Shown here in pieces: positions 12,761 to 18,999 of a DNA stretch of 64,000 bases (position 1 is its first letter; every line of letters begins with the position of its first letter). The stretch is from assembly GCA_023205875.1 (NCBI GenBank), contig CP060758.1, positions 806,001 through 870,000 of the forward strand. Direction: 5' to 3'. The position numbers were made by a program, and so were the translations under genes. The DNA comes from Chloropicon primus (lineage: Eukaryota). Under the pieces are notes generated by a model that did no database searches, was not told the DNA's origin, and worked only from the letters and a program-made list of their open reading frames with translations.

Positions 12761-12774
12761 AATTACGATTACAT
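12761..12774 (+). repeat. Left copy of 14-bp target-site duplication AATTACGATTACAT
   Basis: Identical to 16282-16295. Confidence 0.9.
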
Positions 12775-12784
12775 AGTACATCAG

Positions 12785-13315
12785 ATTAGCAAATGAATCC
12801 TCGTGTGATCGCTGGTGAGAGCGATCACACTCATGACGCTACCCGCAGGGCTTCACCAGGGCTTCGCCCTAGCTTCGGCCTGCGCTGCGTCTACGTTGCT
12901 TCTCATCATTTGATTACACGATACCATCACGCAAAAGTTACCCCGGAGGGTTACTCCCATCAGGTACCTTCGATTGTATTCTATGCGGCCCTCCACCAGC
13001 GAATCGAAACGCCTTTTTGAATGGAAGGTGACACTTCCATCCAATGTAGAGAGCCATCCGGACTACTCTCACTCCGAAGGGGAAGGAGCTGCCCCGAGTG
13101 TAAAACACTTTCATGCAGGCGTGTCGGAGCTCACCCCGGCGGTGGCGAGGCTTGGTTGGTTGGCTGTTTCAGAATCAAGAGTCTTGAAACATGTAGGCAC
13201 GCAAGGCTACTCCTTTCATCGTCCACAACCAATCACCCCGCCGATACCAGGGACTGTCGAGCTCGCACGCTCTTTGAGTCTTCGAGCTGTGGCCTCGACT
13301 ATGGGGGCGCGTTCA
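12785..13315. ncRNA. Putative large structured RNA at the 5' end of the Fanzor element (family unknown, strand uncertain)
   Basis: Consecutive stems: CAAATGA/TCATTTG, GTGTGATCGC/GCGATCACAC, GACGC..CGCAGG/CCTGCG..GCGTC, TTCGATT/AATCGAA, ATGGAAG/CTTCCAT, GAGAG/CTCTC, CACTC/GAGTG, GTTTCA/TGAAAC, GTCGAG/CTCGAC; no credible ORF. Confidence 0.5.
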
Positions 13316-13449
13316 CTTAAAAAAGAAACACAAGGAAACAAAAAACGAGAACGCAAGCCCCTCTCAGTCTCGACTAATCAAGCGCAGCTTCTTCATCATG
13401 GCTGGGCACACCATGGTGATGGGCACACGGCGTCGCCAAGGGAAGTGCT

Positions 13450-13509
13450 GGTCGCTCGGGCAGGCCGGTCGCTCGGGCAGGCCGGTCGCTCGGGCAAGCG
13501 ACCGGCCTG
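13450..13509. repeat. 17-bp tandem repeat (GGTCGCTCGGGCAGGCC x~2.8) ending in a perfect 13-bp hairpin
   Basis: Units at 13450, 13467, 13484; CAGGCCGGTCGCT (13478-13490) pairs with AGCGACCGGCCTG (13497-13509). Confidence 0.9.
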
Positions 13510-13580
13510 GTGCGACGACGGACGTTCACAACTGAGGGTGAGGGTCGTGGTCTCCGATGACACTTTCAAAATTTCCACGA

Positions 13581-13638
13581 CCACAGCCACAACCACAGCC
13601 ACAGCCACAGCCACAGCCACAGCCACAGCCACAGCCAC
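13581..13638. repeat. (CCACAG)n microsatellite upstream of Fanzor
   Basis: Visible hexamer run with one variant unit. Confidence 0.9.
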
Positions 13639-13729
13639 AACATCAAAAAAAGAGAGGAGAGGAGAGGAGAGGAGAGAGGGGGGGAGGGAGGGGGGCTGGG
13701 CACTTCCACATTAACTCTACTTCGACACC

Positions 13730-15796
13730 ATGACCTCCGACGGCCCTTCGACCTCACGTCCTACTGCCAAGCGTCTACGTGGTTCGCGTTCTCCTCGCCG
13801 ATCCCATTCAAAGAGGAGGAAGGGGAAGAAGGAGAAGGAGAAGGAGAAGAAGGGGAAGAAGAAAAAAATTTTTAGGGCGTATAAGATCGGTCTCCATTCA
13901 GCTCTCCAGCCCAGGTTGCGGGACAGCCTTGGGGTCGAATTGGAGGATGCCTCAAGAAGAATGGGGGTGATAAACCATCTCGGGACGGTGTTGATGGCCC
14001 TCCACCATGCTCGTCGGCTTGGGGAACTGCCCGGGGCTTCTGCTGATCTCGAAACCTTTCACCGTCGGTGCGGAGAGATGGTGACTGAGCTCAATCAACT
14101 CAGGGCTGAGCGGGAGGGGGGGCCGGTGGCGGACATCCAACTCCTCAAGAGGGTTTGGAGGTGTGTTCCAGCGATGGATCGGGTTTCGATAGGTCACTAC
14201 CTCCGCACCGTCTCCCACACGCCCAATTCGAGGGAACCAACGTCACAGGAACCAACGTCACAGGAGTGGAGATTGCTCCAGGCATCCATGGCGGCGTTGG
14301 TTCAGGCCGCCACAGCTGCCGAGACCTCTCTGCGTCTGCGTCTGCCATCGCGGGCGCTCCTGTCGCATGTCATCACGGAAGCTGCACTAGTTCTCAGGAC
14401 GAATTGGTCAAACTTCCTCAAGTACGGGACCTTCAATCACATGAAGCAATACCTGAGAGCAAAGTACCAACTGAACAAATCCGAGGCTGCCGCTCTCCGA
14501 GCAGCCCTTTTGAGCGAGTCGCAGCCCCGGAGACCCGACCTCGTCCAACACTACCACAACGAGCTGGCCCTCGTTCAGGGCTTTGGCGTTGCAGACTTTA
14601 TGCACGGCACCGACAACGTTCTCGACCCCGCGGAGCAAGAGAGAAACATGGTCGTGTTCAGGTATATGATGCTCAAAACGGTAGAGGCCTCGGACCTTCC
14701 GATCAAGCGTTTCACTCTGGTGCCTGTCTGCCGGGTGCAGTATCCAATGATCAATGTCTCGCGATCTTGCCTGAAACTCTGGGGCTATGATGGTGGCCGT
14801 GGGTGGGAGAAGATTTTCACCAAGAAGGTGAACAACATCGCCAAGAAGGGCCACACGAATGGACGTACCAAGGCATTCGCTAGGCACTTTCGAACCGATG
14901 GCCTCAGCGTCGTGGTCGTTGTCGAAGAGGTGATCCTCGCTCGTCCCGACAACAACTATATAGGCCAAGGGGAGCGGTGTGCCACCAAGCCTTCTCAGTT
15001 CGATCCCCGGAACACCGTGGGCGTTGATCCCGGCCGAATTTTTGTCGTCTACGCGAACATTCTGGAGAGGGGGAGGAAGAGGACCTTTTCTCTTCACCTC
15101 TCCGCTTACCGCGACCGCTGTGGTTTCACGAAGAGGAATATTTTGGCACACCAGTGGCTGAGCAGAGCCCCCAACAATCTCCAACAGAGATTGAACGACC
15201 GCGCCATTTCTCTGAAGCTCACAAGTGTAGATCGCCTCCAGGCGGCGATTGGGACCCGGCTCACCTTCCTCTCCAACGCCATCGATTTTTTGGGGCAACG
15301 GCGCTGGCGTCGAAAAGGGTTGGAGACTTTTGGGCGAAAGCAGCGAACTATGGAGTTCATAGCAAGCAAACTCTTCCCGACGGCGTCACACATCGTCTTC
15401 TACGGAGCCGCAAACTTCCCCTCTGGCATCAGGGGACGCCCTCCCGGGCCTTGCATCGGGCTCAAAAGGTTTTTGGTGACGAAGACCACACCAGGGAGAT
15501 TCTTCTTCGTCGATGAATACAACACCTCCAAGATGTGCGCAGCATGCTCTCAGAAGAACATCTCCACTGCGCTGCGGAGAGTGCACAAGAGTGATAGAAG
15601 CCGAGGAAACGGACCACCATCAAAGAAGGGACGTCCCCAGTACGGAGTTTTGTCCTGCCCCAAATGCAGTATGGAAGTGCCCCGCGACGATAACGGCTCG
15701 GACAACATCCTCGCCATCGCCAGTGCTTTCCTCCATGCACAAAATTGGTCTGTCCCACGCGAGATTTGGCCGCCAGCGCTGCGACGCCCTCTGTAG
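13730..15796 (+). CDS. Fanzor1 (eukaryotic TnpB-like RNA-guided DNA endonuclease), 688 aa, intronless
   Basis: RuvC-I VGVDPG (D433), RuvC-II VDEYNTSK (E596) adjacent to CAAC, CPKC zinc finger, RuvC-III RDDNGSDNI (D653); Fanzor1-type FTLVP, RTDGLSV and VFYGAANF segments; basic NLS-like N-terminus. Confidence 0.9.
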   Translation: MTSDGPSTSRPTAKRLRGSRSPRRSHSKRRKGKKEKEKEKKGKKKKIFRAYKIGLHSALQPRLRDSLGVELEDASRRMGVINHLGTVLMALHHARRLGELPGASADLETFHRRCGEMVTELNQLRAEREGGPVADIQLLKRVWRCVPAMDRVSIGHYLRTVSHTPNSREPTSQEPTSQEWRLLQASMAALVQAATAAETSLRLRLPSRALLSHVITEAALVLRTNWSNFLKYGTFNHMKQYLRAKYQLNKSEAAALRAALLSESQPRRPDLVQHYHNELALVQGFGVADFMHGTDNVLDPAEQERNMVVFRYMMLKTVEASDLPIKRFTLVPVCRVQYPMINVSRSCLKLWGYDGGRGWEKIFTKKVNNIAKKGHTNGRTKAFARHFRTDGLSVVVVVEEVILARPDNNYIGQGERCATKPSQFDPRNTVGVDPGRIFVVYANILERGRKRTFSLHLSAYRDRCGFTKRNILAHQWLSRAPNNLQQRLNDRAISLKLTSVDRLQAAIGTRLTFLSNAIDFLGQRRWRRKGLETFGRKQRTMEFIASKLFPTASHIVFYGAANFPSGIRGRPPGPCIGLKRFLVTKTTPGRFFFVDEYNTSKMCAACSQKNISTALRRVHKSDRSRGNGPPSKKGRPQYGVLSCPKCSMEVPRDDNGSDNILAIASAFLHAQNWSVPREIWPPALRRPL

Positions 15797-15880
15797 CGGC
15801 AAGGGCTATGGATCCAGGTTGAAACCAAGCAGGACACTGGATAAGATCTTTCTTGAGATCGAGGAGGACGTGGGAGGCCC
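15786..15880 (+). ncRNA. Putative Fanzor omegaRNA: scaffold ~15786-15860, guide from ~15861
   Basis: Stems GCCCT/AGGGC, ATCCAG/CTGGAT enclosing GGT-TGAA-ACC, and GATCT/AGATC directly 3' of the ORF, where Fanzor/TnpB omegaRNAs lie; host-gene homology starts right after the last stem. Confidence 0.6.
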
Positions 15881-16261
15881 AAGCACAGGACGTCGGGGCA
15901 TTCCAAACGAGTCCGGACAGCACCACGAGCTCATCCATCGGACCGGCAGGGCTATCCTCGTAGTTCGCGTAGTAGAAGCCTCCCAGTGTGTACCCGTTCA
16001 ACTCCACCAGAGGCATCTCCTGCACGACGACGGCAAGCGCGTCCCATCCCATCCCATCATCCAAGCGTCCGTACACAGAGTGAGAGAGTGCGTGCGTGTG
16101 CGTGCGTGTGTGTGTGTGGGGGGGGGAGTCAGTTCAGTTCAGTCCATGGTGAGTGCGACAGGAAGGTTTGCTTGTTGGGAACTTACCGGAGGGACGTATT
16201 GGCGAGCGACAGAGGACTTGACGAGGTGGAACTGATAGTGCGCGGACCCCCTGAACGTCCA
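15861..16261 (-). pseudogene. Fragment of NEOXANTHIN-DEFICIENT 1-like gene, truncated at both ends, intron 16020-16186 retained
   Basis: Spliced translation WTFRGSAHYQFHLVKSSVARQYVPPEMPLVELNGYTLGGFYYANYEDSPAGPMDELVVLSGLVWNAPTSCAWASHVL matches the NXD1 N-terminal half; in-frame stop and no ATG upstream; C-terminal half not found in the window. Confidence 0.8.
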
Positions 16262-16281
16262 ACAACCCTCCCGGGAACGTC

Positions 16282-16295
16282 AATTACGATTACAT
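16282..16295 (+). repeat. Right copy of 14-bp target-site duplication; contains the TGTAA poly(A) signal (minus strand) of the Rab3GAP gene
   Basis: AATTACGATTACAT identical to 12761-12774; abuts the TAA stop at 16295-16297. Confidence 0.9.
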
Positions 16296-18811
16296 TAGAC
16301 GGTTACAATGGAAGCGAAACGTGTCATGCTCTGGTCGAGGTCTTGGGAGAGGTAGGTGTACAACAAGGGCAAGTCCTCGGGGCCTTGGGCCTCGCCGGCG
16401 GAGGTGAACAGTTGGACCACCTGCTTGCGGAGGTGAAGGAGCATCACGCTGTCAGAGCTTTCTTCCTGCCTTCGGAAGCTTTCGCCGAAACTGAAGGAGG
16501 AGTGAAAGGGGTCCGAGAGGCTCAGCTCCAGGGTCGGGCCGTTGGAGAACTCCTTTGTGACCAGTTTGTTGACGAAGGCGTCGACAAGGAAGGCCTTGAC
16601 GTCCCCCGAAAGGAAGACCAGCTTCTGGACCACGCTCTCGGCGAAGGATATGGAGACTTCCAGCAGGTGGAGGTCGAGGCAGAGGATCGTGGCCTCCTCG
16701 TCCTTCGCGAGGTCTGAAGTCGCCAGCTTCTTCGGCAACTTCGCCACCCAGTCTTGGACGCTCTCTTTGACGCTCGAGACGAGATCTGCGATAGGCTTCA
16801 GCTCCAGGTTCCTGCTCGCTCTGAGGGTGTTCACACAATTGGACAAGCCCAGGCAGTAGAGCGACTTGAACAACTCGAGGGGGGCCACGTGCTCGAGCCA
16901 GTCCAGGGCCATCTCGGCTCTGCTGCAGAGAACGCTTTCTGCCAACCCCCCCTCGGAGTGGTCCTCTTCCTCTTGGGCGCTCGCCAAGTCATTCCACACG
17001 TCTTTCAGCCTGTCCTTGGTGAAATTGTTCCACGCAAGAGATTTGCAGAGCTTTGAGAACTCGTCGAAATACCTCGAGGACCGAAAGTGCTTCTTGAAGT
17101 CACCAAAGGACACCCCGTCCTTGGCCCTCCTGAAGGACCTTGCCATCTTCCTCGCCGCAACCCCGTGCATCTTGATCCAGACCTCTTTCTTGTTCTTCTT
17201 GTTCGAGGTCGTGGTGAACATGTAGTCATACTCACCGACGAGGTCCGAGGTGAGCATGCTCGGGTTCGAATCACCCGAGTCATTTCCCACCAAGTCGTTC
17301 GCGCTCAGGGTGCCGCCGCTCCTCAGCCCCAGAATGCAGAGCTGGATCAGCTGCACCTTCTGCTCGATGACTTGGCACGAATGGTCGATGCCCGCAAAGC
17401 CAACCATTCTCGGCAGGAGCTCCCGCTCCTCCCAGTACCCGAGCCTAATCCCCGAAATAAACCGCTTCCACAGCAAGGAGATCGCCCTTGGGTTGTCGCC
17501 ATAAGACAGGGCGTACATGGACAGGTACCCCACGAGGTTGTCCACGGGGAGGCTGTGGAGGTCGTTCTCGAGCCCCCCGAAGTTCTGCGTGACGTGAGCC
17601 CTCCGGTTGAAGATGGACTCGACCTGAGTCTCCAAAAGATTCTTCGAGGGTATCTGAGGGACCTGCGAGTATTGGTCCCAAAATGAATCCTGGGACAACT
17701 GGCTGACCCCCTTGGCCCTCTCGACCAGCTGAAAGGTGGAGTGAAAGGCGGACACCATTTGAGCAAAAAAGTAGCCACCGCTTGACTTCTTCATGGTATC
17801 CATCACATTCCTGTGCCACATGACGTCCGAGAGCACTTCGTCTTTGAGCTCGAGCTTCAAGCAGGCCTCGCCCACCGCGTCAAGGGCACTCAGAGACGAG
17901 AGCTCAAAACTCTTCACGGACTGGGAAGATCCGCTGGACCCACCCGCGCGTTGGAATGAATCGAGATCGGTCTGCACATCAGAGCAGCGGAGGTTGTCCC
18001 ACGATATTCCCAGCCTTATCCCGGCGATTGGATCTTCGTATTCTGCCCAAGGGTACCAGGGGCAAGCAGCGTTCCAGTCGTCAATCCAGATGCACATGTC
18101 GGACTCTGACTCCGGGAGGGTCCAAGTGAGTTCGAACTCTCTCGTCACACTCGCGCTCGTGCTCGCGGCCTGCCCTGCCCCCCCCGCGGCGGCGGCTCCC
18201 CGCCCCCTCTCCACGACCGATCCCGCCCTGGACTCGGAGTGGTAGCCTTCCACGACCGACAGCGGAGGCATCTCAGCTGCCTTGAGTCTTCCCGTGATAC
18301 AGTCCGTTTGCAACCGCGCCACGTGGCCCCCTGGCCTCAGGTGCACGCCTTCGAAGGACCTCCTCTGCCTGTCTCTCATCGGTATGAGCAGCGGGTGGGG
18401 GAACTTCAAGCTCGTCGCGGACGTGGACAGAGCCGACAAGAGCGCCACGCCCTCCTCCTTATCGAGAACGCAGCCCGAAAACGAGTTCGGGTAAAGCAGC
18501 ACGAAGGGCTCCCCCTCCCCCAAGGCAAGCCACTTGGACAGGTAGTGGTCCATGGGAGGGTAGTGCAAGGCCACGCTGTACTTCTCCGGCCGGAACTGCG
18601 GCAGCTTCGCTTCCAGGACCCACACATGAACCTGGTCCCCCTCGTTGTTTTCGATGACTTGGCTCGGCGATGCTGCAGCGGGAAAGTCTCTCAAACCTTC
18701 TCCGTCCTCCTGGGCCTTCTTCCATTCGCGAAGCTTGGCCTCCACCTCCGCACAGAACGCCTCCCACGCCGTCGCGGTCGTGTAGTCCAGGAACCCGTCC
18801 TCATCCTCCAT
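16295..18811 (-). CDS. RAB3GAP1: Rab3 GTPase-activating protein catalytic subunit-like
   Basis: N-terminal DYTTATAWEAFCAEVE, NPRAISLLWKRFI..WE and IDHSCQVIEQKVQLIQLCI segments. Confidence 0.7.
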   Translation of the reverse strand: MEDEDGFLDYTTATAWEAFCAEVEAKLREWKKAQEDGEGLRDFPAAASPSQVIENNEGDQVHVWVLEAKLPQFRPEKYSVALHYPPMDHYLSKWLALGEGEPFVLLYPNSFSGCVLDKEEGVALLSALSTSATSLKFPHPLLIPMRDRQRRSFEGVHLRPGGHVARLQTDCITGRLKAAEMPPLSVVEGYHSESRAGSVVERGRGAAAAGGAGQAASTSASVTREFELTWTLPESESDMCIWIDDWNAACPWYPWAEYEDPIAGIRLGISWDNLRCSDVQTDLDSFQRAGGSSGSSQSVKSFELSSLSALDAVGEACLKLELKDEVLSDVMWHRNVMDTMKKSSGGYFFAQMVSAFHSTFQLVERAKGVSQLSQDSFWDQYSQVPQIPSKNLLETQVESIFNRRAHVTQNFGGLENDLHSLPVDNLVGYLSMYALSYGDNPRAISLLWKRFISGIRLGYWEERELLPRMVGFAGIDHSCQVIEQKVQLIQLCILGLRSGGTLSANDLVGNDSGDSNPSMLTSDLVGEYDYMFTTTSNKKNKKEVWIKMHGVAARKMARSFRRAKDGVSFGDFKKHFRSSRYFDEFSKLCKSLAWNNFTKDRLKDVWNDLASAQEEEDHSEGGLAESVLCSRAEMALDWLEHVAPLELFKSLYCLGLSNCVNTLRASRNLELKPIADLVSSVKESVQDWVAKLPKKLATSDLAKDEEATILCLDLHLLEVSISFAESVVQKLVFLSGDVKAFLVDAFVNKLVTKEFSNGPTLELSLSDPFHSSFSFGESFRRQEESSDSVMLLHLRKQVVQLFTSAGEAQGPEDLPLLYTYLSQDLDQSMTRFASIVTV

Positions 18812-18999
18812 GATCTCCGAGCCCCCCCAGCTGTCACTTGTGGAGGATACCAGCCCAGCAAAGCACCAGAGAGAGAGAAGAGAGAGAGGGGGGGGTGAAT
18901 CGGTTGGTGGGAGTCCATAAGAAGTATGTCGTTTCATAAAAAATACTTGGAGATAAGGGTGTACTTTTTAGACCCTTACTTGCTGCAGAGCATCACCAG

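Follow-up and report, generated by a model that had tools for sequence, protein, structure and literature searches.

Does the reading frame at 13730–15796 of this stretch of DNA from Chloropicon primus, a very small marine green alga (the window, meaning the whole 64,000 nucleotides that were analysed) encode a complete Fanzor1 nuclease, how did it come to lie there, and to which sequence would its guide RNA point? The original prediction described an apparently intact Fanzor1 with a set of named motifs, three acidic residues and a very basic N-terminus, and these features are borne out: the 688 codons run on the plus strand as a single frame without interruption, the motifs VGVDPG, VDEYNTSKMCAAC, CPKC and RDDNGSDNI start at residues 430, 594, 643 and 652, residues 433, 596 and 653 are D, E and D as claimed, and residues 1–47 contain 21 K/R and 4 D/E. 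The third-position GC content was also said to be less biased than in the flanking genes, and is 0.67, compared with 0.79–0.94 in the four host ORFs measured in the flanks; it is the seventh lowest among the 30 ATG-initiated ORFs of at least 300 aa in the window, a set that includes overlapping shadow frames. The parts of the gene lie as follows:

13730..15796, plus strand: Fanzor1 ORF, 688 aa, intron-free
13730..13870, plus strand: N-terminus, residues 1–47, basic by K/R count and mostly of low confidence in the AlphaFold model
15026..15028, plus strand: RuvC-I residue D433 (SpuFz1 D383), in 87 of 87 alignment rows
15515..15517, plus strand: RuvC-II residue E596, shifted (SpuFz1 E541), six residues ahead of C603, in 87 of 87 rows
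15536..15667, plus strand: C4 zinc finger C603/C606/C643/C646, kept in 72, 74, 78 and 74 of 87 rows; PF07282
15686..15688, plus strand: RuvC-III residue D653 (SpuFz1 D606), in 79 of 87 rows

The Fanzor1 ORF matched 237 representatives at E ≤ 0.001, with 23–38% identity to the nearest relatives across the matched stretches. For the alignment, 86 of the 150 matches listed were chosen by length (507–794 aa, a few in this range being omitted), giving 87 rows with the ORF itself, and D433, G435, G559 and E596 are invariant in all of them. When this alignment was used as a profile, SpuFz1 (E 1e-68), PpFz1 (3e-59) and GtFz1 (2e-56) ranked first, followed by a mimivirus Fanzor2 (7e-11), and D433/E596/D653 landed on their SpuFz1 counterparts at one constant offset, as counted by hand in the profile alignment (SpuFz1 residue numbers from Saito 2023, PMC10432273, and Xu 2024, PMC11423790). 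An AlphaFold model of the 688-aa ORF (pLDDT 81.7, pTM 0.81) gave Fanzor1 structures at all of Foldseek ranks 1–7, and structure comparison (VIA) with Fanzor1 returned Z 19.2–22.2, rmsd 4.2–5.1 and 473–533 aligned residues, the next family reaching Z 12.6. In the model, D433, E596 and D653 sit at a strand end, in a loop and at a helix start, respectively, within high-confidence blocks; on the alignment offset and these model blocks, the three residues are predicted to form one RuvC site. The comparison by profile and by structure that had been proposed as a check was thus run, with SpuFz1, PpFz1 and GtFz1 first by both routes, and the claim of a Fanzor1 with a complete catalytic triad is upheld by profile, alignment and model alike. 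Over its whole length, including the enlarged REC, the protein is nearer to Fanzor1 than to Fanzor2 or TnpB by profile, Foldseek and structure comparison, and its fold matches SpuFz1, PpFz1 and GtFz1 (PDB 8gkh, 9cf0 and 9cer) from residue 44–46 to residue 665–687. The four proteins share the same triad and C4 finger, although the C. primus sequence is only 10–15% identical to the other three.

Published signatures of the superfamily were also found. Residues 590–660 match Pfam PF07282 above its curated cut-off (30.1 versus 26.3 bits), and the Fanzor motif D-X(125,275)-[TS][TS]-X-X-C4 finger-X(5,50)-RD (Bao and Jurka 2013, PMC3627910) is present as D433, T599-S600, C603/606/643/646 and R652-D653, with spacings of 165 and 5. 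Fanzors have G or P in place of the canonical RuvC-II glutamate and an alternative glutamate six residues ahead of the zinc finger (PMC10530073, PMC13565253), and here G559 and E596 occupy these positions in 87 of 87 rows, with six residues between E596 and C603. The original prediction had treated the glutamate before the finger as a Fanzor hallmark. It is indeed present, but it is common to Fanzor1, Fanzor2 and some TnpB, so it is insufficient alone to name a Fanzor1. A single-sequence search of PDB sequences returned 0 matches, the profile alone succeeding there, NCBIfam guided_TnpB scored far under its cut-off (16.3 versus 100 bits), and the nearest atlas clusters (score 0.98), a lead only, were PF07282/DUF8286 proteins from eukaryotes and giant viruses. 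The sole close database match was from C. primus itself, at 97% identity, and no close relative was found in metagenome and viral contigs. P0035, from a short ENA contig, was the only representative from outside C. primus to be best matched in REC alone (residues 202–341, 36%); it may be more closely related than the proteins matched through RuvC.

Public gene models of this protein begin at M117 and so drop the first WED strand along with the basic N-terminus. The structural match to Fanzor1 begins at residue 44–46 and residues 45–99 are aligned in 75 of 86 homologues, so the long 688-aa ORF is right and the M117 models are clipped. By analogy with the function described by Jiang 2023 (PMC10530073), residues 1–47 are likely a nuclear localisation signal, as the nuclear targeting in the original prediction would require. 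Database records of the clipped 572-aa sequence come from 2 contigs, and QDZ21418.1 is row 1450 of supplementary file 3 of Saito 2023 (PMC10432273), listed as Chloropicon primus, 572 aa and labelled FZ1. Its length is that of the ORF read from M117, and its first 400 letters bear the distinguishing variants of the window copy; unlike the 688-aa ORF, the row is without residues 1–116 and therefore without the first WED strand or the basic tail. Any experiment on the public 572-aa model would thus use a clipped protein. Sister copies appear in Data S1 of Jiang 2023 (PMC10530073) as Fanzor50_0105, _1023, _2230 and _3281, and one row there is a 694-aa stop-to-stop ORF that includes the full N-terminus. 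The suggestion of a candidate new nuclease is consequently not supported as regards novelty, since the protein is already FZ1 in Saito 2023 and its family has four rows in Jiang 2023 Data S1. In contrast to the catalogued protein, neither the element that carries it nor the guide taken from a host gene is described in the literature searched. The searchable text of Saito 2023 and Jiang 2023 holds no description of the element, its ends or its guide, Chloropicon occurs only in the tree table among the eight of nine Saito 2023 files searched, and the accessible text of PMC12633428 mentions Fanzor together with Chloropicon in passing. In the open literature, which here means sources other than subscription journals and bioRxiv supplements, we found no description of the element or of any Fanzor with its guide fixed on a gene of the host, and no experimental test of C. 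primus Fanzor1 was found in the literature searched.

We think it reasonably probable that it is active, with predicted RNA binding and cutting next to a target-adjacent motif (TAM). Two in-frame tandem duplications, at 14233–14265 (15 nt) and 14329–14345 (6 nt), were observed within the Fanzor1 ORF. The copy could be young and already inactive, with an open frame and a protein or RNA that no longer functions; both duplications are missing from the six sister proteins compared, several sisters are frameshifted, and Jiang 2023 (PMC10530073) saw no activity from an intron-bearing Fanzor1 of Chlamydomonas. This seems to us a tentative alternative, of limited probability, because both duplications fall in low-confidence REC loops of the AlphaFold model (residues 145–171 and 198–201), every invariant and nearly invariant alignment column is kept, and the published 694-aa sister ORF (Jiang 2023 Data S1, PMC10530073) carries both duplications as well.

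If the nuclease is active, its guide would be read from the DNA beyond its stop codon. The SpuFz1 RNA consists of a 75-nt scaffold after the stop codon and a 14–15-nt guide (PMC10432273), and the distance from stop codon to variable sequence is alike, at about 70–75 nt, in SpuFz1 and C. primus Fanzor1. Two features occupy this region:

15797..15866, plus strand: candidate omegaRNA scaffold and core right end, 70 nt, placed by analogy with SpuFz1 and common to the sister copies
15867..16281, minus strand: carried fragment of the host gene NXD1, 415 bp, intron-bearing and doubly truncated, from comparison with HOP50_03g22900

The candidate scaffold contains two predicted stem-loops, at 15812–15842 and 15845–15860; its fold is no better than that of shuffled sequences (z -0.70, or z -1.89 with 19 more nt), and it had no match of note in Rfam. 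Its position and length fit an omegaRNA at the 3′ end of a Fanzor1, by that analogy. The guide would start 70–83 nt past the stop codon (15867–15880), and any such start lies wholly inside NXD1 sequence. As a nuclease, the protein would be one further Fanzor1, intron-free and with a simple candidate RNA, its activity predicted only.

The NXD1 fragment begins seventy bases past the Fanzor1 stop codon, and its antisense fills the predicted guide position. On the minus strand it comprises a partial exon 1 without start codon (16281–16187), a 167-nt GT-AG intron (16186–16020) and the first 51 codons of exon 2 (16019–15867), which are 100% identical to HOP50_03g22900 and 69–76% identical to plant NEOXANTHIN-DEFICIENT 1 proteins. 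The gene presumably serves neoxanthin synthesis. Intact NXD1 is annotated on chromosome 3 (A3770_03p22910 / HOP50_03g22900); past the 51 codons its protein continues with different sequence, and the native NXD1 DNA of a relative (L001 and L002, 80% identity) ceases to match at about 15864. By analogy with characterised Fanzor1 systems, the C. primus Fanzor1 is thus predicted to point at the host gene NXD1. A minus-strand 196-aa ORF at 15462–16052 (P0156) was considered as a gene and rejected, being an NXD1 exon piece joined to antisense of the element. The same ORF is annotated as a protein in public databases, and UniRef gives the name NEOXANTHIN-DEFICIENT 1 to its chromosome-2 twin.

Other copies record the same junction. 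A3770_02p12230 is an NXD1 chimera with the same junction and an identical tail; it has a longer NXD1 piece, start codon included, and adjoins A3770_02p12240, the chromosome-2 copy of this Fanzor1. A3770_02p12240 is also the closest sister, with 2 substitutions over residues 149–400 and 4–10 in the other five compared. A third copy, the published sister ORF of Jiang 2023 Data S1 (PMC10530073), is identical through 15874 and diverges within a few codons; because this ORF apparently contains indels, the NXD1-like stretch in common is given as 8–13 nt. These sister junctions were read from annotated proteins and from the one published ORF with apparent indels.

The third copy raises an alternative view of the junction, in which the 8–13 NXD1-like nucleotides are the true end of the element, targets are joined by short homology (guide-seed or end pairing), and NXD1 was hit because it contained matching sequence. 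Along with the divergence after 15874 in the published sister (PMC10530073), the 7 nt before the junction match the relative's native NXD1 in 4 places, which favours this view. Fanzor1, however, cuts 14–21 nt from the TAM (PMC10432273), a distance at which a junction would not fall on the seed, no such match lies at the ends of the window copy, and the sister ORF is a single translated record with apparent indels. We regard a short-homology origin as unlikely, and continue with NXD1 as flanking DNA that the element carried along.

The limits of the carried block, which the original prediction passed over together with the host-gene piece in the guide position, were sought in exact repeats, and the features found were:

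12761..12774, plus strand: left copy of a 14-bp direct repeat, a likely target-site duplication, from the exact-repeat search
12775..16281, plus strand: inferred insertion of 3507 bp, made up of a 3092-bp core and 415 bp of carried host DNA, its bounds inferred from the repeat
16282..16295, plus strand: right copy of the 14-bp repeat, starting at the end of NXD1 similarity
12803..12830, unstranded: perfect 11-bp hairpin, 28 nt in from the left end and with a loop of 6 nt, from folding and stem scan
13450..13509, unstranded: 2.8 copies of a 17-nt unit leading into a perfect 13-bp hairpin (13478–13509), from repeat and stem scan

The 14-mer at 12761 and 16282 is the only non-simple exact 14-mer repeat with copies 1.5–6 kb apart in the 64-kb window. 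Nine comparable 13-mer repeats occur there and a lone 14-mer is near the chance expectation of once per window, so the weight of the repeat comes from its position. Its left copy follows T-rich host DNA and lies 114 bp upstream of where a DEAD-box helicase gene starts, and its right copy is within 2 nt of the end of NXD1 similarity and directly adjoins the stop codon of a host ORF of 880 aa. With the block 12775–16281 removed, the 880-aa ORF would stand about 130 bp from the helicase start, a gap that we infer to be normal for a compact genome. The left part holds strong hairpins: 12775–12900 folds with z -4.38, none of 200 shuffles being as stable, and the only two perfect stems of at least 11 bp in the window both lie in the left 750 bp of the element. 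At a threshold of 9 bp the window has five perfect stems, two of them in the left 750 bp, and five shuffles gave 0–1. Simple repeats (CCACAG ×9.8, GAGAG ×5 and a G-rich run) occupy 13575–13700, directly upstream of the Fanzor1 start codon, and are possibly its promoter or leader.

No transposase was found in the element by Pfam, homologue or atlas search. Neither a 243-aa ORF at 12983–13714 nor ten further stretches without stops in the left part gave a Pfam match above cut-off or a homologue, and the atlas score was 0.75. A likeness of the left part to a decayed Harbinger-type transposase, seen by eye in its motifs, was dropped when the searches gave no support. Neither terminal inverted repeats nor terminal direct repeats were found at the ends of the element, the longest inverted matches to either right end being 8–9 nt and internal.

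Near-identical (97–98%) Fanzor1 proteins bear locus tags of chromosomes 2, 4, 5, 13 and 17 in two annotations, and three of the gene models are broken; some copies, the chromosome-2 sister among them, are frameshifted. Lemieux 2019 (PMC6731263) lists a 37-nt chromosome-2 indel that matches 13022–13063 in 36 of 38 letters; from the order of locus tags only, we infer that it sits in the chromosome-2 Fanzor1 copy. Of 6 motifs from the element ends, 0 were found among the published heterozygous indels, in the first 400 letters per cell of that table (PMC6731263), and RNA depth for the loci of this family was not found in 14 of the 20 supplementary files of the same paper.

Spu-1 has 30-nt inverted repeats (PMC10432273) whereas none were found here, and for cut-and-paste elements with terminal inverted repeats (Spu-1, Mariner, hAT) the internal 8–9-nt matches and the 14-bp duplication do not fit. 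The Chlamydomonas reinhardtii elements CRe-1/2/3 are copies of Fanzor1-Helitron2 with 7–19-bp duplications after T-rich sites, and occasionally contain captured DNA (Bao and Jurka 2013, PMC3627910). Like the C. primus element they are green-algal, non-autonomous and Fanzor1-only, with variable duplications after T-rich sites; they differ in having a fixed 3′ end and extra DNA at the 5′ end, whereas the extra DNA here is at the guide end, and their Fanzors are intron-bearing with asymmetric inverted repeats, whereas C. primus has no intron and no such repeats were found. Of the end hairpins expected of Helitron2, the left is strong but lies 28 nt inside rather than at the terminus, and the core right end has a 5–6-bp stem (z -0.14). 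No asymmetric terminal inverted match was found between 12775–12900 and 15761–15880 apart from an internal 10-mer containing a mismatch, and the inferred left end starts with A. In Replitron-1, insertions bring along DNA from downstream of the parent and show duplications that vary (Craig 2023, PMC10288648), and Replitron-1 and Replitron-N1 resemble the C. primus element in a right end that bears DNA from downstream of the parent copy and in a duplication of variable length. Unlike in Replitron-1, the left end of the C. primus element follows AT and not RG, and the carried piece is long (PMC10288648). Replitrons have short direct terminal repeats, whereas here no 5-mer is common to the first 25 nt and 15836–15882, and there is no match to a Rep HUH gene within the element. 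Since it resembles both Replitron-1 and the CRe copies but departs from them at its ends, the element is filed as neither.

Taken with the shared junction, these observations lead us to consider it probable that the locus is a full-triad Fanzor1 on a likely non-autonomous copy-and-paste transposon, the guide being a piece of NXD1 that was likely dragged along from the parent insertion. An ancestral copy would have inserted into exon 2 of NXD1, and daughters would then have been copied with an imprecise right end, retaining different lengths of NXD1 flank: 415 bp here, a longer piece on chromosome 2 and at most about 8–13 nt in the third copy. Integration through a staggered break would have produced the 14-bp duplication. 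The mobiliser might be an HUH-type (Helitron- or Replitron-like) enzyme acting in trans, a proposal on which we stand evenly divided. The protein would bind its own 3′-end RNA and cut DNA beside an AT-rich TAM, normally restoring or spreading the element. As the ancestor would have sat in NXD1 and its daughters kept the flank, the guide would still read as the ancestral site did before its insertion, and at that site this genome has an intact gene. Against this reading, the searches of the element for a transposase and for terminal repeats were negative, 415 bp is long relative to the 'short' fuzzy ends described for Replitron-1 (PMC10288648), and no record shows a copy within the NXD1 gene of chromosome 3.

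The block could instead have arrived by repair, as 3.5 kb that template switching copied from a sister locus into a double-strand break, without a transposase; the Fanzor family would then move by another route and NXD1 would be a bystander. Variable-length duplications are compatible with break repair, and the present ones fit it. The lack of any transposase or terminal repeats among the searches made is in keeping with such an event, as is the closest sister, in which the junction is shared and the NXD1 piece is longer; the NXD1 intron is retained, which argues for copying at the level of DNA. The copies on five chromosomes and the strong hairpin just inside the left end speak against such repair, and the 37-nt chromosome-2 indel resembling 13022–13063 (PMC6731263) suggests that the left part travels with the Fanzor1 gene. 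We therefore find a repair-made duplication doubtful, and retain the copied element with its host flank as the preferred reading.

What the NXD1 guide does is a separate matter from how it was acquired. The guide was compared with the window copy's own insertion site without a convincing match (best 9–11 of 15), so it was not the guide of this copy that made the 14-bp duplication. Fanzor1 TAMs known so far are AT-rich (review, PMC13565253); the insertion site of the window copy is preceded by T-rich DNA, and the corresponding NXD1 site is mixed in the relative's gene. Real cutting of intact NXD1 needs a fitting TAM there, and we think it unlikely. Most likely the NXD1 guide is an accident of transposition and not an adaptation.

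Craig 2023 (PMC10288648) tentatively suggests that cutting by Fanzor contributes to variable duplications. A bolder version of the copied-element account would have an active Fanzor1 with its guide fixed on NXD1, an RNP that cuts or binds NXD1 in trans, and breaks that help to create the long target-site duplications, and this we consider quite improbable. As the right flank is copied together with the element, several copies would keep the NXD1 guide and not acquire a new one per site. If true, Fanzor-made breaks would bear on the long duplications left unexplained by Bao and Jurka (PMC3627910) and by Craig (PMC10288648). A further possibility is a domesticated, host-directed Fanzor, in which the NXD1 guide is kept since the RNP binds or nicks NXD1, tuning it or driving allele conversion. 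The candidate guide starts at 15867–15880 all lie inside sequence identical at the protein level to the intact gene, the NXD1 junction is present in at least two copies, bacteria have TnpB-derived repressors (PMC13565253), and C. primus is mostly diploid (PMC6731263). However, all three catalytic residues are retained, unlike in dead repressors, the target lies in an exon rather than a promoter, the chromosome-2 sister has a frameshift, and no close relative was found outside C. primus, so that there is no sign of conservation. A host-directed role accordingly seems to us very improbable, and the guide as a by-product of copying remains our preferred reading.

Yoon 2023 (PMC10711439) reports a C. 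primus Fanzor2* in an element with terminal inverted repeats, in rows of 477–543 aa; identity with the present protein was rejected, as no motif of the Fanzor1 ORF was found in those Fanzor2* rows. Lemieux 2019 (PMC6731263) lists, with RNA depth, 25 'IS605 transposase' loci in C. primus, which contain none of the locus tags observed for this Fanzor1 family and form a separate IS605-like family. These roughly 25 loci are likely the Fanzor2* of Yoon 2023, and the small C. primus genome would then hold both Fanzor types. The small, fully assembled algal genome carries a handful of 97–98% identical copies whose ends record parentage, so that two questions can be tested directly: by what route Fanzor-carrying algal elements without terminal inverted repeats acquire carried flanks and duplications of variable length, and how a eukaryote puts up with a Fanzor guide that matches one of its own intact genes.

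The host DNA on the right was also inspected. The 880-aa host ORF (16295–18937, minus strand) had no Pfam match at E ≤ 0.1. The pentamer TGTAA is a green-algal polyadenylation signal. It is contained on the minus strand in the duplicated 14-mer (16282–16297 region), immediately past the point where the 880-aa ORF stops, and the insertion may have left the 3′ signal of this gene in place and moved a copy beside the helicase promoter.
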